Assembly (NCBI RefSeq): GCF_963921235.1
Contig: NC_086097.1
Coordinates: 162,938,001-163,002,000 of the forward strand
Reading direction: 5' to 3'
DNA: 64,000 nucleotides
DNA from: Mobula hypostoma
Lineage: Eukaryota
In this document: one piece after another, positions 34,801-55,800 of the stretch
How the letters are laid out: the number at the start of each line of letters is the position of its first letter
Numbering within the stretch: the first letter of the stretch is position 1
Notes under the pieces: model-generated
The model's input: the letters and a program-made list of their open reading frames with translations, nothing else
What the model was told of the DNA's origin: nothing
The model's database searches: none
Program-made: the position numbers and the translations under genes

Positions 34801-37800
34801 AATTTCTTCGCAAAACTGAAATGGATGCAAATGCCAAAGCAGGTTACAGGTCAAATGTGGCCAGAGCATTGATGCTTTACTAACTCAAGAATTACCCCTC
34901 GACTACAGCTACTGGTATGATGTGTGTCATAGTACAGGACAGGTCAGGGTTTCTGATGTTCCATGAGGGCCTCAGCAGGAGTAGAACTAAGAACTAGCTA
35001 TGCTGTTTGTGATGCCTGCTATACATCCAATAAGGTGATGGCTAATTCCCTACACACTCACTCGATGCCCATAACCCATTTTCAGTAGATTGCAAAGGTT
35101 TGACAATCCTGACTTTGAACAGACTCAGCATCTGGATATCCCTATTCCTCCGTGGAAAAAAAATGTAAAATATTATAATTGTCTGTATGAAGAATATTTT
35201 CTTATTCTCAGTCCTAAAGTCTGATCTGTTATCTTGAAACTCTGTCTTCTGATAATAAGCTTGCCAGCAAGAGGAAACAGCGCCTCAGCATTTAGTTTGA
35301 GAACCTTTTATCTTGCAGGCTTCAGTGAGTTCACTTTCATCTTTCTGAACTCCACTGTCTACACACGTCTTACTCTATCTCTCTCTCCATCAGTCTTACT
35401 GGATCTCTCTCCAAAGGTCAATGCTTTCATTCCCGTGAACAAGGCAGTTGGGATATAGCCTTGTTTTCGTACAGAGACCAAATCTGGCCATGAGGTCCCA
35501 CTGAACTCCTCCTGCACAATCTCTGTATGACTTTGTTACTTCACCATTTCAGTTCATTACAATAAAGGTCCATGTCCTATTTCACTTTCTCCTTGTTTGG
35601 CACATGCAGCTTCTTCATTGTGTGAACACGGCACACTATTGAATACCAACATACAAAACTTTCCTATTATCTGAAATGTAAGGGCCAAGTACTTTCAGCC
35701 AACAGCAAGCTGTTCCTGTTCACTGCTGGCCCAATAAACATTGGCCTTTACTCTGTGCAGTGAAGAGATGCTAGGAAATGAAATTCAGGAGGAAAGACCA
35801 GCACCACTCCAAATAAATTTGTTTCATTGGGCAGTTGTACAGGATTCACCGACAAAACTGTAGAAAGTAATTTGGCAGTCAGCCAAAACACTCCTCCCAT
35901 CTTAGCCAGCTGTCAAGGATGTCACAAGCTATCAATTTTCTCAAATTGAGAAATATTCACAAATATTCCAAACCTGCTATTAAATTTATTTTTAAAATGA
36001 AGCATTTAAAACATTTTGAAAAAATAGTTGTAGAAATCTAATAGTTATTTGCTCTTCAAAGTGTTCAAATACACAAACATTTGAAAGAAGCTAACAATAT
36101 TGACATCAACTTTACTTCTTTACAATTATTCTACAGCAAAATTGTCCAAACATATTCCCTGACATAAGTGTTAGGAAGGTCCTTCAAGCTGGATGCAGTG
36201 TTGACATACAATATGTAAACAGCTCCCAGCATGTTCCAGACTCCCATATTCATGCATACATTTGCAGACTCCAGAATATGCTGGGGCCTCCATGGGAAGT
36301 TACTGTGATTACAAATGGAACTACCATTATTCCCTGAAAAATCTATCCCTTTTTTGACTTTGCATTCTTTCTACTAAAGTAATGAACTCATTATTTTGCA
36401 TATTGTGCTCTATCTGCTACGATCTTGCCCTTGTGCTTAACCTTTTTTTAATCACTGTGGAGCACTCATTGTTCCTTGCTGGCATTGACAGAATTGTTCC
36501 TTTCACTTCTTTCTCAGAGCTCCCGGCTCAGGCTTAATCTCACTTTTCGAAAATAGTCATTCACAAATCTTCACATTCCTACCTGTCACATCTGGATCCT
36601 GTGTAGGCTGGCTGGCACTGATCACAAATGAATTCTTCTGTTTTGTTTAAGTAGCAAGTGGGACTGAAACTGAAGAAATAATATGAACAACATTAGATTT
36701 GCTGCAGGTATCAAATCATCTGAGCACTCACTAGGCAGTTTCAACTATCTAAAAATTATGGTTCCTTTAGGTTGTCTGAGAAACAGAACGGAACAGCGGT
36801 TTAACTACAGACTTTTCACCTTTGATTCTAGATCAGTATGTTTCAAAACACTGGCTGAAAAATTCCGAATAAAGCAGGATTAAATTCTCATAAATCACTG
36901 GGTCACTGCATTGAGCAGTTCCTGTTTTGGCACTAAATTAATAACCTACTTCAGAGAGAGCAGAAAATAGAACTGGATCAGATGTAGGGACTCGGCCTGA
37001 AATGTTAACTGTTTATATTCTTCCATAGATGCTGCCTGACTCGCTGACTCACATATCCTATGCTGTTCCACATTCTAGCAACATAGGCCGTAGTCAAGGG
37101 AAATTCTTGCCTGACAAATCTATTGAAATCCTCTGAAGAAATAGCAAGCAGGATAGACAAAGGAGAATTGGTAGATACTACTAATTTGGAATTTCAGAAG
37201 GGCTTTGATAAGATACCATACATGAGGCTCCTAAGAGCCCATGGTATTACAGGAAAGATTCTAGCATGGATAAATTAGTTGCTGATTGACCCCTTTCTGA
37301 CTGACAGTGACCAGTGGTGTTCCCCAGGGGTCTGTGTTGGGACCATTTTTTTTTTACATTATATATCAATGATGGAATTGACGGTTCTGTTGCAATGTTT
37401 GTGAACGATACAAAGACAGGTGGAGTGGCAGGTCATTTTGAGGAAGTAGAGAGGCTACAGAAGAACTTAGAGTAGGAGAAAGCTCAAAGAAGTTACAGTA
37501 TCGTGAAGTGAACTTTGGTAGAAGAAATAAACTATTTACTAAATGGAAAAAAAATTCAAAACCCTGAGGTGCAAAGAGATTTGGAAGTCCTTGTGCAGGA
37601 TTCCCTAAAAGTTAATTTGCAGGTTGAGTCCGTGGTAAGGAAGGCAAATACAATGTTAGCATTCATTTCAAGAGGACGAGAATATAAAAGCAAGGATGTA
37701 ATGCTGAGACTTTATCAAGCGCTGGTGAGGTCTCATTTGGAGCCTTGTGAGCAGTTTTGGGCCTCTTATTTTAGAAAGGATGTGCTGATACTGGAGAGAG

Positions 37801-40800
37801 TTCAAAGGAGGATCACGAAAATGATTCAAGGGTTGAATGGTTTGTAATATAAAGAGTGTTTGATTGCTCTGGGCCTGTACTCACTGGAATTCAGAAGAAT
37901 GGGGAGTGATCTAATTGTAACCAATCGAATGGTGAAAGGCATTGCTAGAGTGGATGTTTCCCATGGTGGGAGAGTCTAGGACCAGCGGACGTAGCCTCAG
38001 AATATAGGGGTGTCCTTTAGAAAGGAGATGAGGAGGTATTTCTTTAGCCAGAGAGTGGTGAAACTGTGGAATTCACTGCGAAAGGTCGCTGTGGTGGCCA
38101 AGTCTTTATGTATATTTAAGGCAGGGATTGGGACTGAGAGGGAAAATGGATCAGCCATGAAATGGCAGAGCAGACTTGATGGGCCAAATGGCCTAATTCT
38201 GCTCTGATATGTTATGGTCCTAATTGGTCATTGTAAATAGTACTGTCATTAGGCTAGGGTTAAATTGAGAGAGGCTGGGCATAGCCACTCAAAGTGCCAG
38301 AGAAGCCTATTCGATGCTGTATCTCCATAAATAAAAGATTCTAAATAAATATTTTAAATTAGGACTTTATTTTTAATAAAAATGTGAATTCTACATGGTT
38401 AAAATATGTACATTAGTAGTATCCAATAAAAACTCAGACCTCTGCTGAAGTATTCAATCAGATGTGCTTTCATCACAGTGGATGTATTGAAAAGTGGACA
38501 ATGGTTAAGATGCATATTCAGCCAGTACACAGCATCATTGAAAAAAATATTTTACAGATGGTACACAGAATCATTAATTACAAATGACAAAATTAAAATG
38601 CAAAAGATGGTAAGTTTCAGTAATGGACTATATGGAATATTTACTGCCATAACCTTTATGAATTTCCTAGCACTCCTGGCCTTAGAATCCTAAAGTTGTA
38701 GTTCAAGTCCCACTCAAGCACAAAAATGTAGAATAACTCTGCAGCACAGTACTGAATACTGCACTGTTAGAGGTGCCCTTTTTGTTTTAAGCTACTTATA
38801 ACTTGAAGCACCTTCAATTACTCCAAAAGACTGAGGTTTGGTAAAATACTGAAAGGCTTTTATTCGCTGTACAATATGACCTCCACAGTGAGTGTCTGCC
38901 CTCGGACTGAGGGGGAGGGGCAAGGCGAACACCTTTATACAGGACTCTGTGGGAAGAGCCACAGGGGCAGTCAGCAGAGGGGAGTGTCTAGACAGGCAAC
39001 CGAGTTACAACATATATACATGGTTTACCACATTCACCTTTCCTTTTTTTTTAAAAAAGAGTCCCGCGGGGTGAAGTGACTGACAATATTTACAAGAAGT
39101 ATATTTACAGGTTAAGTCTATCAGGCGGTCGAGTCCGTCGCTGTGATCTACGTAGCACCGGCGGTGATTGCACCGGCGATGGCGGTTGTGTTGGCTCCGG
39201 CCTGACTTCAGGTGCCAGCACGTTAGGCGTCGGTAATCCCTCGTGCGTGTGCGTCGCGCCCGGTATGGGAGTGTCGTGTGGTGTCTGTATAGGGTTTGGG
39301 GTGCACGGTGTTTCGTAGGTACATACATTTGTGGGTACGGGGTCAATAGTCACCACGGAGTGTTCAGGGTAGGGGCCCGGAGCTCCTGCGGGCGCCAGGT
39401 CGCGGATGGAGACCGTGTCCTCCCGCCCATCAGGTAAAACCGCGTAGGCATACTGGTGGTTCGCATGAAGTAAGTGAACCCTCTCGACTATTGGGGAGTA
39501 TTTATTGCTCCTCGCATGTTTCCGGAGCAGCACTGGCCCCGGGGACATCAGCCAAGATGGTAGGGTGGTTCCAGTGGTCGATTTTCTGGGAAAAGAAAAG
39601 AGCCGCTCATGAGGGGTGGCATTGGTGGCTGTGCATAACAGGGAGCAGATGGAGTGGAGTGCCTCAGGAAGGACCTCCTGCCAGCGGGAGACCGGCAGTC
39701 CCTTTGACCTGAGGGCTAAGCGTGTGGTTCTCCAGACTGTGCCATTCTCCTTCTCTACCTGTCCATTCCCCCGGGGATTTAGCTCGTGGTCCTACTGGTT
39801 GCAATTCCCCTAGCCAGTAGGTATTGGCGCAGCTCGTCACTCATAAACAAGGACCCTCTGTCACTGTGGATATAGCATGGGTATCCGAACAGAGTGAAGA
39901 GCTTGCGCAGGGCTTTTATAACTGACGTGATAGTGGTGTCGGGGCAGGGGATGGCGAAGGGGAACCGCGAGTACTCGTCAATTACATTAAGAAAGTACAC
40001 ATTGCGGTCTATGGAGGGAAGGGGGCCCTTAAAGTCAACACTCAGTCGCTCAAAGGGGTGGATGGCCTTGATGAGTGGTGCCTTTTCGGGTCAGTAGAAG
40101 TGCAGTTTGCACTCTGCGCAGACTTGGCAGTCCCTGGTCATCATCCTGATCTCCTCAAGGGAGTAAGGCAGGTTCCAGGCTTTCGCGAAGTGGAAAAACC
40201 GGGTGACTCCCGGGTGGCAAAGGTCTACATGTAGGGCATATAGCCGGTCGATCTGTGCGCTGGCGCATGTTCCCTGAGATAGGGCATCGGAGGGCTCGTT
40301 GAGCTTCCCAGGCCTGTACATGATGTCATAGTTGTAGGTGGAGAGTTTGATTCTCCACCTCAGAATTTTATCATTTTTGATTTTGCTCCGCTGCTGACTA
40401 TTAAACATGAATGCGACTGAGCGCTGGTCAGTTAGCAGGGTGAACCTGTTGCCGGCAAGATAGTGCCTCCAGTGCCTTATAGCTTCCACTATGGCCTGGG
40501 CCTCTTTCTCTACCGCAGAGTGCCGAATTCCAGGGCCTTGAAGAGTACGGGAGAAGAACGCCACTGGTCTTCCTGCCTGGTTGAGGGTAGCAGCCAGCGC
40601 AAAGTCGGAGGCGTCACTCTCTACTTGGAAGGGAATGGACTCATCCACCGCATGCATTGCTGCTTTGGCAATGTCCCCTTTTATGCGGTTGAAGGCCGCA
40701 TGGGCCTCGGCAGAGAGGGGGAATGTGGTGAACTTGACCAGGGGGTGGGCCTTGTCTGCATAGTTAGAGACCCATTGGGCGTAATATGAAAAGAAGCCCA

Positions 40801-43800
40801 GGCACCTTTTGAGGGCTCTGAGAGTATTGGGAAGAGGGAGTTCCAACAAGGGGCGCATACGGTCGGGGTCAGGGCCAATGACTCCATTCTCCACGACACA
40901 CCCAAGGATAGCAAGTCGGGTGGAACCAAATACACACTTGTCCTTGTTATAGGTGAGGTTGAAAGATTTGGCCGCTTGGAGAAATTTTTGGAGGTTGTTG
41001 TCATGATCCTGCTGGTCGTGACCGCAGATGGTGATGTTATCCAGATATGGGAACGTGGCCTTCAGTTGGCACTGGTCCACCATCCGGTCCATTGCCCTCT
41101 GGAAGACAGATACACCATTCGTGACACCAAAGGGGACGCGCAGGAATTGATAAAGCCTGCCGTCTGCCTCGAAGGCAGTGTAAGGGCGGTCCTCCCAGCG
41201 GATGGGGAGCTGATGGTAAGCGGATTTTAGGTCTATGGTCGAGTACACCTTGTACTGTGCTATCTATTGACCTTATCTGCGATGTGGGGTAGAGGGTACG
41301 CGTCGAGCTGCGTGAACCTATTGATGGTCTGGCTATAGTCCACGACCATCCTATTCTTCTCTCTGTTCCGAACAACCACCACCTGCGCCCTCCAAGGACT
41401 TGTGCTTGTCTCAATGACCCCCTCCCTGAGCAGCCGCTGCACCTCCGACTTAATGAAGGCTCTGTTCCCCACGCTGTACCTCCTGCTTTTAGTTGCAACA
41501 GGTTTACAGTCGGGGGTCAGGTTGGCGAACAGCGGTGGGGGAGGGATCCTGAGGGTGGAGAGGCCGCAAGTGGTGTCGGTAGTGTGGCAGTTGGCATGAT
41601 GTTGGGTGGGATGCGCGGGTCGGTGTGTGTGTCTGGTCAGTAGCAGGGTACGTGACATACCTCTACAAAACAGGGGATTTATGACAGTAATTGGCAGGAG
41701 GGGCCCATCATACTTCATTGTCACGCTTTTCAGGTGGCTCTGGAAGTCCAACCCCAACAGCACAGGAGCACACAGTTGAGGCAAGACCAGTAACACAAAG
41801 TCCCGATATTCAGTGCCCTGCACCACTAGTGTCGCTACACAACCCCCCCCCCCCCGGGTGTCTGCTGTATGCGACCTGGAGGCCATGGTGACCCTCCGAC
41901 TTACCGGCCATATCATGAGTCCACAATGCTGCACCGTGGCCGGGTGGATAAAACTCTCCGTGCTGCCTGTGTCAAACAGGCAGCTTGTCCTGTGCCCCTC
42001 CACCAGGATGTCCATCATTGACCTTGCGAGCTGGTGGGGAGCGCTTTGGTCGAGGGTCACGGAAGCCAGGGTGGGGTCGCTGTCTTGGTCCGGCGTGGTG
42101 GGGTGCCCCGTGAGCACCCGTTGGTCGTAGGCGGTGGGAGGTGGCGCCGACCAAGATGGCCGCCCCCATGTCTCGCATGTGATGGTGGCGTGCAGGGAAG
42201 ATGGCGGCAGGCAAGATGGCGACCCCCACGTCTCGCACGCGGCGCTGCTCCATCCCGCTCACGGTTTTGACTTACAGGCCTTGGCGAAGTGGCCCTTCTT
42301 TCCGCAGCTGGAGCAGGTAGCTTGTCGGGCCGGGCAGCGTTTCCGGGGGTGCTTCTCGAGTCCGCAGAAGTAGCACTTTGCGGACTCACGACTGGTGGCA
42401 GCCAAGGTCGATTCGCTGGCGGGTTGCGGGGTCTGCGGCACCCACGAGGCCATCGGGGGATCGCGTGCCTGGAGAGCCTCGGAGTTATGCAGAGCGGCCT
42501 CCAACATATCAGCCAGCTCCATCGCCAAACTTAGGGTAAGATCGGCTTTTTCCAGCAGTCGCTGGCGCACGTACACTGACCTGGTCCCCGTGACGAAGGC
42601 GTCCCTCACTAGGAGTTCTGCATGCTGCACCGCCGTCAGCTCCTGGCAATTGCAGGCTCGCACGAGCGTCCGTAGGGCCTGTACGAACTCAGCACTCAAT
42701 TCCCCGGGGCATTGTTGCTGTGTCGCTAAACGGTGCCGAGCATAGACGCTGTTTATCGGCCGCAGGTATTGCCTTTTGAGTGCGTTCATTGCGCCGTCGT
42801 AGTTCGGCTGGTCTCTGATCAGCGAATAGACCCGTGGACTGACCCTGGAGAGGAGAACTCTGCGCTTCGCTACGGGGTCGGTCGCTTTGATCTCCTCTAG
42901 GTACGCTTTGAAGCAGGCCAGCCAGAGTTCAAAAGCGTTTCCAGCTTCAGGTGTTTGCGGATTGAGGTCTAATTTTTCTGGTCTCAGGGACTGTTCCACG
43001 TTTTAAAACGTACAGCAAATAAAATTGAAGCACCTTCAATTACTCCAAAAGACTAAGGTTTGGTAAAATACTGAAAGGCTTTTATTCGCTGTACAATACG
43101 ACCTCCACAGTGAGTGTCTGCCCCCGGACTGAGGGGGAGGGGCAAGGCGAACACTTTTATACAGGACTCTGTGGGAAGAGCCACAGGGGCAGTCAGCAGA
43201 GGGGTGTGTCCAGACAGGTAACCCAGTTACAACATATATACATGGTTTACCACATAACTGAGGACCCTTCTGTCCCCACAGTGTAACATGGTGCTCTAAC
43301 AACGCTCTTCTGGCCAATATTTGTACCCTACTGACTACTGGGTGCTTACAACAATGCAACATGCAAAGCCTTGCTGTTCACAAAGTAGCCACCACTACAA
43401 CAAACTACAGATGGCTTCTTTGCCTAGATTCTACAGCTCCTGTAAAATACATTCACAATACAAGTTGAGGTTGCACAGTCAGTCATCAGATACTTTGATG
43501 ATTGATAATGTGGCACGCCCAAAGGTTGTGCATAGCATAACAAACACCTTGCATCAGAACAATAGCAGGCTTACTTGTTAGAGGGAATGGTCAGTGGGCA
43601 GGCACAAGGTTTGCAGTCCTCTACAGTCCCTCTGCTGGGATCACCATATAAACCTGGGAAGCACTGATCACAGGCTGGCCCAGTTGTGTTATGTCGGCAG
43701 CCCTGGAAAGTACAGAGTTTCAGTAAAAATGCAAACAAAACTTCTGATGGTAACTATGTCTCCCTCCCTCCCCCTTGTTAAGCAGAACAACTTTTCACAG

Positions 43801-46800: not shown

Positions 46801-49800
46801 TGCTGCTGGGCCCTCTTCTTCCCTTCCCCCACCACTACTCTCCAGCCCCGTGTCTCTCAGGCCCCACCATCAGCTCTTGTGTCCTTGGAGCCTCCATCTT
46901 CCTCCCACCCTACTTTCATTGAACGCCCCAACCCTCCATTCTTCTCTGACACAATCAGTTCTTTCCCCTCTCTGATCCTAGATCTAATCCTTGGCATGTC
47001 TTAACCATTCCCTCCGACCTCCCCCTCCCTGAGGCAGAATGTTCTGTCCCCAGTACAGCCTCATCTTTGTCCCCCTTTGCCCGCACCTCAATGAGTTCCA
47101 CCCGCCACGATGTTGGGCTCTTCTTCTGTTGCCTCCGTCTCCGAGCCCACTTCTTTGACAAGGATTCCACACCTCACACTGGTGACCTCTTCTTCCACCT
47201 TCAACCCTCCTCCTATTCTTGGTCACCCCATTCTGGTTTTCTGCCTGCTCTGGATCTTTTCATCTCAAATTACCACCTCATCTTCAGCACTCCACTCTCC
47301 TCATTGAACCTTACCCTCTCTGAATGCATTACCCTCCACTCTCTCCAGACCAATTCCAACCCTACCATCAAACCCGCAGACAAAGCGGGGTGCTGTTGTA
47401 GTGTGGCGCACTGACTTCTACCTTGCTGAGGCCAGGCGGCAACTGTCAGCCACCTCCTCATACCTACCCCTTGAAGAGGACCTCACTCTGGACTATCAGA
47501 AAACTGTCTCCAACACTGGAGAACTCTCACCCACTGCCATCAAACTCATAGTTCCCTTACCCTGCACTGCTCACTCCTACCTCTTACCCAAGAACTACAA
47601 ACTGGACTGAGCAGAAAAGTGTATTGTCTCTGCTTCCTCTTGCCTCACTGAACTCATGTCCTCATACCTTGATTCCATTCTATCTCCCTTAGTTCAGTTC
47701 CTTCTCCACTACATCCGCCATACGGCTCAAGCCCTCAATCTCCTCCATAACATTAAATTTCCTTTCCATGACCGCCTCATTTTCACCAAGCATGTTCAGT
47801 CCCTATACCCCGCTTCCTTCTTGACAAAAGGACCAACTAGTTCTCCTCCTCCTTCTGGCAGAACTGGTCCTCCCCCTCAATAATTTTTTCTTCAGCTTTC
47901 TCCAAACTTTAGGGGTAGCTACAGGCACCCACATAGGCCCCACCTATGCCTCCCTCTTCATTGGCTAGATAGAACAATCCATGTTCCAAGCCTGCCCCGG
48001 TAATACTTCCCAGCTCTTCCTCTGCTACACTGATGACTGCATTGGTGCTGCTTCATGCACTTCTGCTGAACTTGTCAATTTTATTAACTTTGTCTCTAAC
48101 TTCCACCCTGCCCTTAAATTCACTTGTCTCTTACCTGACACCTCCCACCACTTCCTTGATCTCTCTGTCTCCATCTCTGGAGACAAGCTGTCAACCGACA
48201 TCTTTTATAAATCTACTTATTCCCATGGTTATCTAGACTATACCTCTTTCCACCCAATCTCCTGTGAAAATGCTATTCCCTTTCCTCAGTTTCTTTGCCT
48301 CTGTTCCCAGGATTCGGCTTTCCATTCCAGGACATCAGACAGCAGCTTGTGGTCGAGCCCACCAGGGGATCAGCTATTCTGGACTGGGTGCTGTGCAATG
48401 AACCAGAACTGATCGGAGACTTTAAAGTAAAAGAAGCCTTAGGGGCAAGGGATAATAATATGATAGAATTTACCCTGAAATTAGAAAAGGAGAAGTTAAA
48501 ATCAGATGTATCAGTATTACAGTGGAGTAAAGGAAATTACAGAGGCACGAGAGAGGTCTTGGACAGGATTGATTGGAAAAGAACACTGGATGGGATGATG
48601 GCAGAGCAGCAATGGGGTAGTTGGAAGCAAATGATAAAATAGATTGTTGTCAACATGGTTTCCTCAAGGGAAAATCTTGCCTGCGAAATCTGTTGGAATT
48701 CCTTGAAGAAAGATAGACAAAGGGGAATCACTTGATGTTGTGTGCTTGGATTTTCAAAAGGCCTTTGACGAGATGCCACACATGAGGCTGCTTGACAAGC
48801 TACGAGCCCATGGTATTACAGGAAAGGTTCTAGCATGGATAAAGCGGTGGTTGATTGGCAGAAGGCAAAGAGTGGGCATAAAGGGAGCTTTTCCTGGTTG
48901 GCTGCTGGTGGCTAGTGGTATTCCACAAGAGTCTGTTCTTTTTCTGGACCAATTCTTTTTATGTTATAGCTTAATGATTTGGATGACGGAATTAATGGCT
49001 TTATTGAAAAGTTTGCAGCTGATACAAAGATAGGTGGAGGGTCAGGTAGTTTTGAGGAAGTAGAGAGGCAACAGAAGGACTCAGACAGATTAGGAGAATA
49101 AGCAAAGCAGCAGCAAATGGAATACCATGTCGGGAAGTGTATGGTCATGCACTTTGGTAGAAGAAATGAAAAAGGTTGACTATTTTCCAAATGGAGAGAA
49201 GATGCAAAACTCTGAGGCACAAAGGGATTTGCAAGTCTTTGTGCAGGATTCCCGAAAGGCTAATTTGCAGTTTGAGTCTGTAGTGAGGAAGGCAAATGCA
49301 ATGTTATCATTCATTTCAAGAGGACTAGATTATAAAAGCAAGTATGTAATGTGAAGACTTTATAAAGCACCCGTGAGGCCTCACTCGGAGCATTGTGAAC
49401 AGTGTTGGGCGCTTTAGCTGAGAAAGCATGTGCTGAAACTGGAGAGGGTTCAAGGGAAGTTCAAAAAATGATTCCAGGATTGAATCACTTCTCAGATTAG
49501 AATGTTTGATGGCTGTAGGCCTGTATTTACTGGAATTTAGAAGAATGAGGGGTATTGAAACCTTTCGAATAGTGAAAGGCCTTAGTGGAGTTGATGTGGA
49601 GAGTATGTTTCCTATGATGGGAGTGTCTAAAATGGAAGACACATCCTCAAAATAGAAGGGCGTCCTTTTAGAATGGAAATGAAGAGGAATTTTTGTCTGA
49701 GAGTGGTGAATCTGTGGAATTCTTTGCCACAGGCAGCTGTGGAGGCCAAGTCTTTATGTATATTTAAGACAGAGGTTCATAGATTCTTGATTGGTCAGGA

Positions 49801-52800
49801 TCTTGGGACTGAGAGGAAAAAATGGATTGGCCATGATGAAATGGTGGAATAAACTCGATGGGCCAAATGGCCTACTTCTGCTCTGATAATAATAGTGAAG
49901 CCATTGGTTTTTGTTTTTTTTTATTGTCACATATATCAAGATAAAGTGAAAAATTTTGTTTTGCGTGTCATCTATAAAGATTATTTCAAAACACAAGTAC
50001 GTTGAGGTCGTACAAAGGAAACAGCAATAACAGTAAGCAGAATAGAGCATTACTGTTATTGTTAGAGAGCGTGCAGTGCAGGTAGGCAACAATGTGCAAG
50101 GGCCATTAAAAATATGCTGGCATTGAAGGCAGTTCATTCACTAGTCTAACACATAAAAAATATGAAAAGGTAAATAAATTTACAAACGTTGGGAAACCCA
50201 AAGTGGGCAACTGGATGGCAAGGAATTTTTATCTGGGAATTAATAAGCCATTACGTAGCTCACCATAAGTGGCATACAAAGCATGGAGATACAGAATGAT
50301 ACAGCCTGCAGGAGGATGCTCAAAAAATTATGCCCTGATTGCTTCTTTAATACAACACTCTAATTAATTAATCTCACTCCCCTATTCTTTTCCTTTTGCC
50401 CTGTAGACTTCTCCTTTTCCTGTACTTGCCTAATTCCTTTTCAAAGTTCTCACTAAATAAGATGCCACTACATTCTCAGACAGAAACTCCAGAACAGTCA
50501 GCCAGTTCCCTCAAAATCAAATAGCAAGGAAAACCAATCATTTGAAGAATATGGGATGAAACCAAGAAATATTTAGCAACATTTATGTTGAGAAAAACAG
50601 GACATCTATTATTTTCTTGGTTGAGCTAAGGGCTTTCTACTTTCTACTTGGGAAGGGAGGAAATCTTTGTACAACTGGGGATAAACTCTGAGGTTAAGCC
50701 AGCAGTGCAAGGCGAAAAGCTCTCTGAAATATAACAGGTACTGCTCCCTTCTAGTCCATTTCACTGTACTGTTTTAAAGATGCAGCTAAGGAATGAGAAT
50801 TTTCAGTGTTACCTCACAGGAAATGCCAGTGTAGCCCAGAGGACATTCACAGTGTTCAACATCCACTGCAGGAAGAACGTCGATGGCATTTGGGTTTGCT
50901 ACGTCCAAAGTGACAGAACTCAACCTGAAATGACAAAGATTGGCATAATTCTCACAACTAACTATATCAAACAGATAGAGCAGAGCATCTATGGGCACCT
51001 GTGTTTTGGAAGTCGGATTGAGTAACAGTTACAGTTTTATTAAAAGTTAGACGTTTAACCAACGATACAGCAGCAGCCATAACCACTCTTGCTAGCATTA
51101 ATTCTGTCAAATATTATTTTTTGACTGAGTTTCACAACTTCGCACAGTGGGATTTGAACTCATGATCTCTGGAACCCTGGTTAACTACTACAACTTCTAC
51201 ATTGCACAGAAGTATGTCTTAAGATACAATTGATAGTCTGAAGTAGTAAGGTTGTCAAAGTTCTGTAATTTGCACTTACCGGTTCCACAACAATTTGTTA
51301 AATAATACACATATCCTGAAAACTTTGCCTGGATTTTGGAAGTCATTGACTATTATTCCATTTGAATTATTTAACTAGACAGAACACATTTAAAATATTG
51401 AGATTTTTAAAGTAATTGAGGGAAGAAATTAATTAGTTCATGAGATAACAAGCAGTTAACATATTCATGGCAAAGCTTTGATGATCATTTTGCATTGACT
51501 AATTCATAAAACTGTCTCGATTGAATTCATCAGCAGGAGCACACCCCATGCCCACTGCTTTGCATCTTACTGAAGTAACATAAAATGTACAAGAGCATTC
51601 TGCCCAACATGTTTGTGCTAGCCAAAGAAGTGTTACCTGATTTAATCCCACATTAATCTTTGAGGTCCTCACTACTCTTTTGCTGTGAAACAAAACAGTT
51701 TAAAGATTTATTACAGCTTCTGAGAATCTCTTCATCTCTCTTTCTTTAAGATGCTTTTAATATCACTAAAACCTAATTGATTTAAAGAGTTTGCTCAATC
51801 AGAGCTCCACAAGGTTCATTCAAGATTATACCTCTTAAAAGAGAACCCAGTCAAATCAATTGCCTCTGCAGTGGAAGAAGCTATACCTGCTTCCCAGGCT
51901 ACCCCATTCACAAGTTTTGGTTGGGTAACTTACAACCCTATGATATGGACATTGAATTTTCCATTTTCAGATCAAACCACCCCCCCCCCACCCCCATGTT
52001 CAACTCCCATGCACATTCATCTATCCAGCTAGTTTTCTTCTCCCTTTGTTCACCTTTCCCATCCCTTTTTCCACCCTGTATATAACTGCTATAAGGGTAA
52101 AATGACACTAATAGCAGTTATATACAGGCCTCCAAACAGCAGCTGGGATGTAGACTACAAGTTGCAGCTGGAAATAGAAAAAGCATGTCAGAGGGAAAAT
52201 GTCAAGATAATTATGGGGGATTTTAGTATGAAAGTGGATTGGGAAAGTCAGGAAGGTAATGGATCTCAGGAGAGGGAGTTTGTAGAATGCCTACAGGATG
52301 ACTTTCTGGAGCAGTTTGTCCAGAAGCCCACCGGGGGACCGGCTGTTTTGGATTGGGTGCTGTGTAACGAACCTGAGGCGATTAGGGAGCTGGAGGTAAA
52401 GGAACCCCTTGGAAGTAGTGACCATAGTATGATTGAGTTCAGTTTCAAATTAGAAAAGGAGAAGCTGGTATCAGGTGTATCGATATTTCAGTGGAACAGG
52501 GGAAATTACAGTGGCATGAGAGAGGAACTGGCCCAAGTCGATTGGAAAAGTAAGCTAAATGGAGGGACGGTAGAGCAGAATTAGATGAAATTCCTACAAG
52601 AAATAAGGAAAATGCAGGAAAAATATATTCCAAGCAAAAAGGAAATCATGAATGGAAAAATGCCACAAATGTGGCTAACGAGAGAGGTTAAGGCAAAAAT
52701 AAAAGCAAATGAGATGGCGTACAAGGAAGCAAAAATTAGTGGGAAAAATGAGGACTGGAAGACTTTTAAAAACTTACAGAAGGAAACTAAGAAAGTCATT

Positions 52801-55800
52801 AGGAAAGAAAAGATGAATTATGAAAGGAAGTTGGTGATTAACATAAAAAAGGATACTAAGAGTTTTTTTAAATACATGAAAAGTAAAAGAGTGACAAGGG
52901 TAGATACGGGACCGATTGAAAGTGATGCTGGAGAAATTATAATGGACAGCAAAGAGATGGCGGAGGAACTGAATGAGTATTTTGCATCAGTCTTCACAGT
53001 GGAAGACATGAGCAATATACCTGATAGCCAGAGGTCTCAGGGAATAGAATTAGGTACAGTCAAGATTACTAGAGAGAAAGTGCTTGGGAAGCTAAGTGGA
53101 CTAAGAATAGATAAGTCTCCCGGTCCGGATGAGGTGCACCCAAGGGTTCTGAAGGAGGTGGCTTTGGAGATTGTGGAAGTATTGGAAATGATCTTCCAGG
53201 AATCAATAGACTCTGGCATGGTTCCGGAGGACTGGAAGGTCGCAAATGTAGTTCCACTATTTAAGAAAGGAAGCAGGCAGCAAAAAGAAAATTACAGACC
53301 TATTAGTCTGACATCGGTTGTTGGAAAGATATTGGACTCAATCCTCAAGGATGAGGTTATGAAATACCTCGAGGTGCATGACAAGATAGGCCGAAGCCAG
53401 CATGGTTTCATGAAGGGAAGATCCTGCCTCACCACTAAGATTGACAAGGGAGAGGCTGTGGATGTTGTGTATTTGGATGTTCAAAAGGCCTTCGATAAGG
53501 TGCCGCATATGATGCTGCTGAATAAGATGAGAGCCCAAGGAATTATAGGAAAGATATTGAAATGGGTGGAGCATTGGCTGATAGGCAGAAAGCAAAGGGT
53601 GGGAATAAAGAGATCCTATTCTGATTGGTTGCTGGTTACTAGTGGTGTTCCGCAGGGGTCGGTGTCGGGGCCGTTTCTTTTTATGATGTATATCGATGAT
53701 TTGGATTATGGATTAAATAGTTTTGTGGCTAAGTTTGCGGATGACACCAAGATAGGTGGAGGAGCAGGAAATGTTGAAGAAACGGAAAGGTTGCAGAGAG
53801 ACTTAGTCAGTTTAGGAGAGTGGGCACAGAAATGGCAGATGAGATACAACGTTGACAAATGTATGGTTGTACATTTTGGAAGAAATAATCGGGCAGATTA
53901 TTATTTAGATAGGGAGAAAATTCAAAAATTGGAAGTGCAAAGGGACTTGGGGGTCCTCGTGCAGGATACCCTAAAGGTTAACCACCAAGTTGGATTGGCG
54001 GTAAGGAAAGTGAATGCTATGTTGGCATTCATTTCAAGGGGAATAGTGTATAAGAGCAAGGAGATGTTGATGAGGCTCTGTGGGGCATTAGTGAGACCTC
54101 ATTTGGAATACTGTGTGCAGTTTTGGGCCCCCTATCTTAGAAAGGATGTACTAATGTTGGAGAGTTCAGAGAAGATTTACAAGGATGAATCCTGGAATGC
54201 AAGGGCTAACATATGAGGAACGTCTGTCGGCTCTTGGACTGTATTCATTAGAGTATAGAAGAATGAGAGGGGATCTCATAGAGACATTTCAAATGTTGAA
54301 AGGGTTGGACAGAGTAGATGTGGAAAGGTTGTTTCCCTTAGTGGGTGAGTCCAGGACAAGAGGCCATAGTCTTAGAATTAGAGGATACCCAGTTAAAACA
54401 GAGATGAGGAGAAATTTTTTTAGCCAGAGGGTCGTGGATTTGTGGAATTCATTGCCACATACAGCTGTGGAGGCCCGATCATTGAGGGTGTTTAAGGAGG
54501 AGATTGACAGGTATCTAATTAGTCAGGGTATCAAGGGATATGGGGAAAAAGCCGGAAATTGGAACTAGATGGGTGAATAGTTTAGCTCATGGGGGAGCTG
54601 CGGAGCAGACTCGATGGGCCGAATGGCCTACTTCTGCTCCTTTGTCTTGTGATCTTGTTCCATCTGCTATTATCCACCCTGCCCGATTCCAGCGCTGTCA
54701 TCTACCAGCCTCTATTCCACCCCTTGTACTGTCATATACTAATAGTATTTCCTCTTCCCTCCCAATGCTGACCTCAGTGACATACCCCTTTTGTCTCTAC
54801 AGATGCTGCCTGCTCTTCCAGCTTTATTTTTATATTTATGTTTTAGATTCCAGCATCTGCAATTTCTTTTACATTCATACCCAGGAGGTGATACTACCAA
54901 ATCTGCTGGTCGGTACAATTCAGTCCAACAAGCATAGCTTCTCATGGTTTTTTTAATGATTTAATTACTGCATTTTCTAATGACAGAGAAGGGAAACGCT
55001 TTAGTCCATGAAGCCGTTGCGGGCTTACAGAGCAATCTCATACCCACTAATTTCCTAAAACCTATTTTTCCCACATTCCCATCAGTTCCCTACCGCTCCC
55101 ACCACTCATTCCACTTACAAAGGGCAATTACTGTACCAATGTATACGTTTTTGGGAGTAGACAGGAGCACCTGGGGAAATACATGGTCACAGGGAGAATG
55201 TACAAACTCCATGGACTCTGTGTGATTCAGGATATGGATGGCAATATTATGGACGAGTTCTGTATTTAAGGCAAGTAGAAAGAAGAGGGATAAGCAAGGA
55301 ATGTTTAGGAATACTCAAGATTGGGGTGACCACAACAGGCAATCTGAGAAAGTTTAAACTGGAGTTCAGGGAATGCAGTGAAGATAAGAGTAGCGCACAC
55401 AAAATGCTGGTCAGGCAGCAGCTAAGTTCAAAATGAAAGAGTCGGCAATTTCAGGCCTAGACCCTTCAATCTGGTCCTGCTGGATTCCATGCAGGAAGAA
55501 TGTTCCTGATGGCTACAGAACCCAGAACCAGTGGTCACAATCTATGGATAATGAAAATGCCAGGTAAGAGTAAGGTGAAGAGAAACTTCTGCTCCTATAA
55601 TGTGGTGAACCTGTAGAATTCCCTACCACAGAAAGCAGTTGAATCCAAATCATTAAATATATTAAATAAGATATAGCTTTAAGGGACAGAAGGATCAAGA
55701 AAATGAGAAAAAGGCTGGAATAAGGTATTAATTTTGGAAGGTCAGCTATGATCATATTGAATAGCAAAGTAGGCTTAAAGGATTAAATAGTCTACCACAG

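Follow-up and report, generated by a model that had tools for sequence, protein, structure and literature searches.

A Gypsy retrotransposon of Mobula hypostoma, which belongs to a widespread animal lineage, carries a primer-binding site (PBS) that pairs with a segment of its own long terminal repeat (LTR), and we consider it likely that this segment primes reverse transcription. The pairing begins one base past the LTR end, and its two strands covary both within the genome and among related families. The initial annotation of this DNA had suggested a self-priming variant different from that of Tf1/sushi elements, a proposal that gained support since the pairing is conserved and covarying and a TGG is lacking.

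The element and its primer-binding site

The window, a stretch of 64,000 nucleotides, contains a Gypsy element of 4,451 bp (~4.45 kb) at 43254-38804 on the minus strand (Table 1). The protease-RT-RNase H-integrase order, the TG...CA LTRs, the target duplication and the polypurine tract agree with Ty3/gypsy. The 5' and 3' LTRs differ from each other at eight positions, and their borders were confirmed by four contig sets from sequencing runs. In this copy pol is disrupted by in-frame stops and a frame change, and no env was found in the element. Two zinc knuckles and the lack of a visible chromodomain had been noted earlier, and our gag reading and Pfam agree with both: no chromodomain was matched by Pfam in the window pieces or in five pol-bearing relatives (E 0.05). 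The chromodomain control L097 gave a Chromo match at E 2e-4, below the curated cut-off, and also carries SH3_Tf2-1.

Table 1 Features of the element in window coordinates
Feature	Position	Strand	Remarks
5-bp target duplication AGTTA	43259-43255 and 38803-38799		flanks both element ends
5' LTR	43026..43254	-	229 bp, TG...CA
TATA-like box TATAAAA	43155..43161	-	AATAAA in older subfamilies
Initiator-like TCAGT	43128..43132	-	predicted RNA start at A 43130, LTR position 125
PBS-pairing LTR segment	43080..43094	-	predicted self-primer 3' end; AATAAA at 43086-43081
Predicted cut site AAAA^GCC	43079..43080	-	LTR positions 175/176; inferred from geometry
Second stem GCCTTT/GAAGGT	43032..43079	-	starts immediately after the paired segment
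One-base spacer A, LTR end to PBS	43025..43025	-	
Primer-binding site, LTR-complementary, no TGG	43010..43024	-	
gag	42259..43002	-	begins a few bases past the PBS; two Zn knuckles at its end
pol: protease, RT (YLDN), RNase H, integrase	39105..42258	-	order from Pfam
Polypurine tract	39033..39055	-	
3' LTR	38804..39032	-	229 bp; AATAAA without partner, predicted open

As first described, the 15 nt at the PBS and the LTR segment form 14 Watson-Crick pairs plus a single G-U, and the segment proved identical in both LTRs. The best of 20,000 dinucleotide-shuffled LTRs matched the PBS at 13/15 positions and none at 14, and the folded leader had a z of −3.30, with 0/200 shuffles equally stable. The register supports priming because the pairing begins one base past the LTR end, where the primer must end. 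The TATA reported upstream was located at its given position as TATAAAA; in this TATA-like box, the young subfamily has TATAAA where the older ones have AATAAA (among L148-L192). The TCAGT motif was found in 13 of 15 rows compared. The segment had been placed about 35 nt past the predicted start; the TATA-like box, the initiator and three ends of the fold-back insertions described below would place the start about 36 nt upstream of it. A small hairpin (43119-43098) separates the predicted start from the paired segment; it contains a 10-nt palindrome in some older subfamilies (L178, L181) and is possibly a dimerisation site.

The RT active site (40970-40985, minus strand) reads YLDN/YMDN rather than YXDD in the window family and in many relatives, and other clade members retain YLDD. 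The second Asp of YXDD is normally required for RT catalysis; the YLDN-type family nevertheless has many young copies. A literature search for YLDN gave one, unrelated match. Elsewhere in the window, LINE/SINE-like repeats are dispersed around the element (37100-38210 and 48650-49890), and 52033-54216 on the plus strand is taken up by a disrupted LINE in which endonuclease and RT domains were recognised.

Conservation and covariation of the pairing

Within the genome, 66 copies were chosen by gag similarity and not by their PBS (67 loci, one duplicate removed). None of these sibling copies has a TGG-type PBS, one of three observations that the initial annotation had listed as counter-evidence and none of which was made here. 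The pairing is complete (15/15) in 27 copies and extends over at least 13/15 positions in 56, and three copies are damaged by deletion or replacement. The position of the single G-U pair in the window copy is occupied by a G-C pair in most siblings. In older subfamilies, whose LTRs are ~80% alike, compensatory changes occur on both sides of the pairing. Among 16 hand-chosen in-genome copies, 4/15 pairs were altered on both sides, giving 20 cells compared with 9.3 after shuffling and with at most 6 in slid controls; because the copies are related, this figure is no probability. The family is large, with 772 candidates for LTR plus leader and about 2,000 for gag. A search of the genome for further families of the clade returned only the window family and its older subfamilies.

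The proteins nearest to those of the element among named sequences came from rays and a shark (74-94%), followed by a cnidarian and two nematodes (57-62%). Scans yielded 80 metagenome and 7 genome-collection loci, of which 60 were counted as clade members; no relatives were found in the viral contigs scanned. The gag start lies inside the contig in 29 of the 60 clade loci, at the edge in 2, and is missing from 29. Where it lies inside the contig, the pairing is present in 26/29 loci, and the three loci without it all lack an LTR pair. Seven bacterial genome assemblies (L111-L117) carry the animal retrotransposon, most likely as host contamination.

One copy per family, the window family included, was compared across 17 families with the one-base spacer assumed as register. 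Watson-Crick pairing to the family's own LTR was found at 214 of 221 positions, with one G-U in addition. The variable pairs 5-13 matched the own LTR at 149/153 positions, compared with a cross-family mean of 4.8/9, and 0/100,000 permutations reached the observed total. These values include nine families in which the LTR end was set independently by LTR pairs and eight in which it was taken from the CA adjoining gag plus the pairing itself, which is partly circular. Conservation and covariation of the pairing, which had been proposed as a check, hold in both data sets. The helix comprises 10-19 bp and is located 20-55 nt from the LTR end; the PBS starts with TTTA or TTTT opposite an A in 15/17 families, the paired segment terminates in AATAAA or ATTAAA in 11/17, and a purine-C directly follows it in 13/17. 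A candidate second stem of 3-6 bp is present right behind the helix in most families. Two families, L061:3436 (basal in the tree) and L087:439, may have a two-base spacer and are without the purine-C behind the segment; the fold of L087 resembles the Tf1 pretzel more closely.

A control set consisted of 20 other Gypsy loci of the same genome. Our labels integrase-first, sushi-like and Mag-like are based on domain order, tree position and, for Mag, an RNase H motif that we presume to be diagnostic. The LTR end could be resolved in eight integrase-first loci, all of which had a G-rich site of TGG/TGT type and self-matches of 4-6 nt. A true LTR pair was present in 6/16 Mag-motif loci, all six of which had a TGG within a few bases and self-matches of 4-7 nt. 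The sushi-like loci L288 and L290 showed a 10-nt match to their own LTR about 285 nt upstream, 27-28 nt past a TATA-like box, and the other sushi-like copies with a resolved match reached 5-7 nt. The corresponding distance from the TATA-like box down to the paired segment is 67 nt in the window element instead of 27. As tRNA-type sites and self-matches separated in these controls, the method distinguishes tRNA-primed from self-primed families. Sushi-like chromoviruses with the classical self-priming layout (L287-L294) thus coexist with the window family in one genome.

Origin of the primer and fold-back insertions

Under the self-priming reading, the RNA would start near 43130, and its bases ~37-51 would fold onto the PBS, with the short second stem stacked beside the helix. 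Cleavage at AAAA^GCC would probably be carried out, as it is in Tf1, by the RNase H that the element encodes and would leave a ~51-nt capped primer. From this primer, RT would copy U5 and the rest of R before the usual jump to the 3' end. Plus-strand synthesis would then copy the attached primer, and the PBS would be rewritten from the LTR in every cycle, which would explain the near-perfect Watson-Crick pairing. The copied end may sometimes mis-anneal to an R copy, from which palindromic insertions with a U3 at either end would arise. A likely side benefit of the helix is that AAUAAA would be concealed at the 5' end and nowhere else. Of this scheme, the pairing, its register and its covariation were observed, and the remaining steps, including where the RNA starts and by which nuclease and at which position it is cut, are inferred.

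Fold-back insertions consisting of the LTR end, the PBS and then the inverted upstream LTR were found 67 times in the genome, 54 of them in the young family and 13 in the older one, whereas controls with the reversed pattern gave 0. Typical examples are palindromic insertions of ~405 bp with LTR, PBS and inverted U3-R, and therefore two U3 ends (L341, L343-L345, L352, L353, L356 and others). Among the young fold-backs, 40 reach the LTR start, eight continue into inverted internal sequence and six stop within the LTR. Twenty of the 40 full-length fold-backs have an exact 5-bp duplication, and five have one with a single mismatch. The fold-backs have the appearance of plus-strand strong-stop DNA whose synthesis extended over a primer reaching the RNA start. 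They would look no different had a second RNA been copied at its 5' end, and fold-backs running to the LTR start are expected from any primer of the same sequence. Through such insertions, replication intermediates can be studied with nothing more than a genome sequence.

The six interior stops of the young family are at LTR positions 126, 126, 124, 121, 15 and 13. The stop at position 121 (L355) was rejected as a start-site stop, as it reflects a SINE replacement; in the unrelated copies L175 and L396, an identical SINE-like piece has taken the place of part of the LTR. Three of the five remaining stops are within 4 nt of the predicted start (p about 0.002). They correspond to 43129-43131, and the start near 43130 that had been predicted in the initial annotation thus gains support. 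The first of these copies jumps to the protease region inside a complete insertion, the second jumps into gag, and the third consists of an isolated LTR-PBS-R piece, with its duplication preceded by three additional bases. Microhomologies of about 7 and 10 nt at two of the three could themselves set the position. In the older subfamily, 9/13 fold-backs reach the LTR start and four have scattered stops after 29, 33, 39 and 56 nt. None of the ten interior stops of both sets is located at 57-160 nt along the arm.

At the predicted cut, L388 has two junctions at LTR positions 175/176, the inverted U5 arms of L368 and L390 end at 176-172, and L349 has a junction at 172-178. In L357/L397, copying passes the predicted cut and extends to position ~162. 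A genome-wide tally of junctions at the cut gave three matches, of which none was a clean cut product: one was a mutated LTR, one a deletion and one a rearrangement. The cut is thus suggested by the junctions in the four copies.

The same LTR segment might also act as primer after being produced in another way, for example as a 3' R copy trimmed as far as the helix, as a short abortive transcript, by a cut in a second packaged RNA or by a host nuclease. All covariation data are compatible with such an origin, the paired segment is present at both RNA ends because it lies in R, and 40/54 young fold-backs run through U3, as a U3-joined primer would allow. We nevertheless regard this origin as unlikely: the interior stops are within R up to the predicted start and not in U3, and the junctions at 175/176 suggest a template starting at 176. 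The normal poly(A) site would be located downstream of AAUAAA, so that trimming would need an extra assumption. The idea of a host tRNA, half-tRNA or other small RNA as primer, with the LTR match as a by-product, draws on the half-tRNA priming known in Copia elements (PMC6317226) and on the limited coverage of our screen, in which the best match of the PBS to 23 host tRNA genes of three isotypes (Lys, Cys and Thr only) was 9-10/15. The PBS varies from family to family and among subfamilies in step with the LTR of each, which a shared host RNA cannot account for; it has no TGG, and a search of 42800-43400 against Rfam gave no match. A host-derived primer thus appears very improbable, the least probable of the explanations considered here.

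Alternatively, the helix might serve mainly to mask the poly(A) signal of the 5' LTR, much as the polyA hairpin does in HIV-1, with something else as primer. The predicted unpaired probability of AAUAAA is 0-0.01 in the 5' copy and 0.88-1.0 in the 3' copy, the segment ends in AATAAA/ATTAAA in 11/17 families, and the HIV-1 hairpin represses 5' polyadenylation (PMC2645353). Masking, as suggested earlier for the 5' LTR, is at most a second role of the helix, because 6/17 families keep the pairing without either hexamer in it; L031 and L034 have a hexamer beyond the helix, at a distance of 5 and 26 nt. Neither the single G-U per 221 pairs nor the fixed register at the LTR edge is required for masking, and masking alone would leave the element without a primer site. 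Masking as the main function is therefore improbable in our view, while it is a likely side role of the self-priming helix, as 11/17 families carry the hexamer there. If the poly(A) signal were instead the one at 43161, upstream of the segment, the segment would belong to U5; this model was rejected for the lineage in general, as only 1/12 other families examined had a hexamer upstream.

Relationship to known self-priming elements

Self-priming was shown experimentally for Tf1 and is regarded as a mark of the Tf1/sushi group. The arrangement in the window element would work like Tf1 self-priming, and the element is placed outside Tf1/sushi by its chromodomain status and its position in the tree. 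Tentatively, and with slightly less than even confidence, we propose that an animal-wide Gypsy lineage outside the chromoviruses evolved self-priming independently. In this lineage, a capped primer of ~50 nt would have the poly(A) signal as its 3' end; a single helix would mask premature polyadenylation, define the cut and rewrite the PBS in each cycle, with palindromic two-U3 mini-elements inserted by integrase as a by-product. If it does use an internal segment as primer, a deep animal lineage (sharks, rays, a cnidarian and nematodes) would represent another tRNA-free start to reverse transcription, and priming would be tied to poly(A) control. Self-priming predicts exact, mappable RNA ends at 43130 and 43079. 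PBS finders based on tRNAs would miss such elements. The literature searched, which included text of PMC3601003, PMC6934838, PMC5443660 and PMC2774666, contained no account of self-priming by animal elements outside the chromoviruses; Repbase and subscription journals, where one may exist, were outside the search.

Like the window lineage, Tf1, Tf2, Tj1 and Tf1/sushi elements share a PBS complementary to their own LTR, the lack of a tRNA site and, as predicted for the window lineage, stems beside the helix (PMC7175516, PMC10085805, PMC4600332), and in Tf1 an RNA cut by RNase H frees the self-primer (PMC7175516). The window lineage would differ in that its helix is located about 36 nt inside the predicted RNA, whereas the Tf1/sushi primer consists of the very first RNA bases. 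Moreover, its helix usually ends in a poly(A) hexamer, and it has neither a chromodomain nor a Tf2-type SH3 domain. The Tf1 pretzel contains three duplexes, compared with the helix and candidate second stem seen in most families of the window lineage. For the TAR lineage of plant Ty1/copia (Houba, Osr-1) and for Tcn1, self-priming was predicted from complementarity between LTR and PBS (PMC6317226), and the trick thus probably arose more than once. These elements belong to another superfamily or to a chromovirus clade, with plant hosts, and an overlap of self-priming with the poly(A) signal is not mentioned in the accessible part of that source (PMC6317226). Fungal GalEa Copia elements likewise lack a tRNA PBS and have a hairpin at the PBS position, but both hairpin arms are internal and no LTR complement was found there (PMC5445492).

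The partner strand in the window element is the PBS, which lies outside the LTR, and the helix can therefore form only at the 5' end. In HIV-1, the polyA hairpin is present at both RNA ends and a tRNA primes. Placement of AAUAAA within a helix at the 5' end is common to both elements (PMC2645353).

The clade formed one group with an SH-aLRT support of 100 in quick trees of 91, 45 and 29 rows based on RT and RNase H; the references were not curated, and the 29-row tree leaves out 16 long or redundant rows. It was set apart from the fungal-type rows, including L097. Motif searches for Cigr-1, Tor2, MolGy and PolGy in the searchable supplements to PMC6238403 and PMC8556966 gave nothing, and a search of the protein atlas returned no name for the clade. 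The initial annotation had considered the element Mag-like. Indeed, it shares with the Mag lineage a short element, short LTRs, animal hosts, and two zinc knuckles without a chromodomain, which we take to be a mark of Mag. In contrast to the window element, this genome's Mag-motif elements carry sites of the TGG type, and their RT identity to it is about 27%. A Mag-like identity could not be established, as the RT stands on a long branch of its own, and the grouping with the Mag-motif rows, which are stand-ins picked by motif, had a support of only 66. The RT phylogeny that had been proposed as a check was clear in one respect, as joining the clade to the sushi-like rows was rejected (p-AU 0.0026), and left the Mag grouping at this support. 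A position as sister to all chromoviruses was allowed (p-AU 0.21). Together with the support of 66, these tests make it plausible that self-priming arose here independently of Tf1/sushi.
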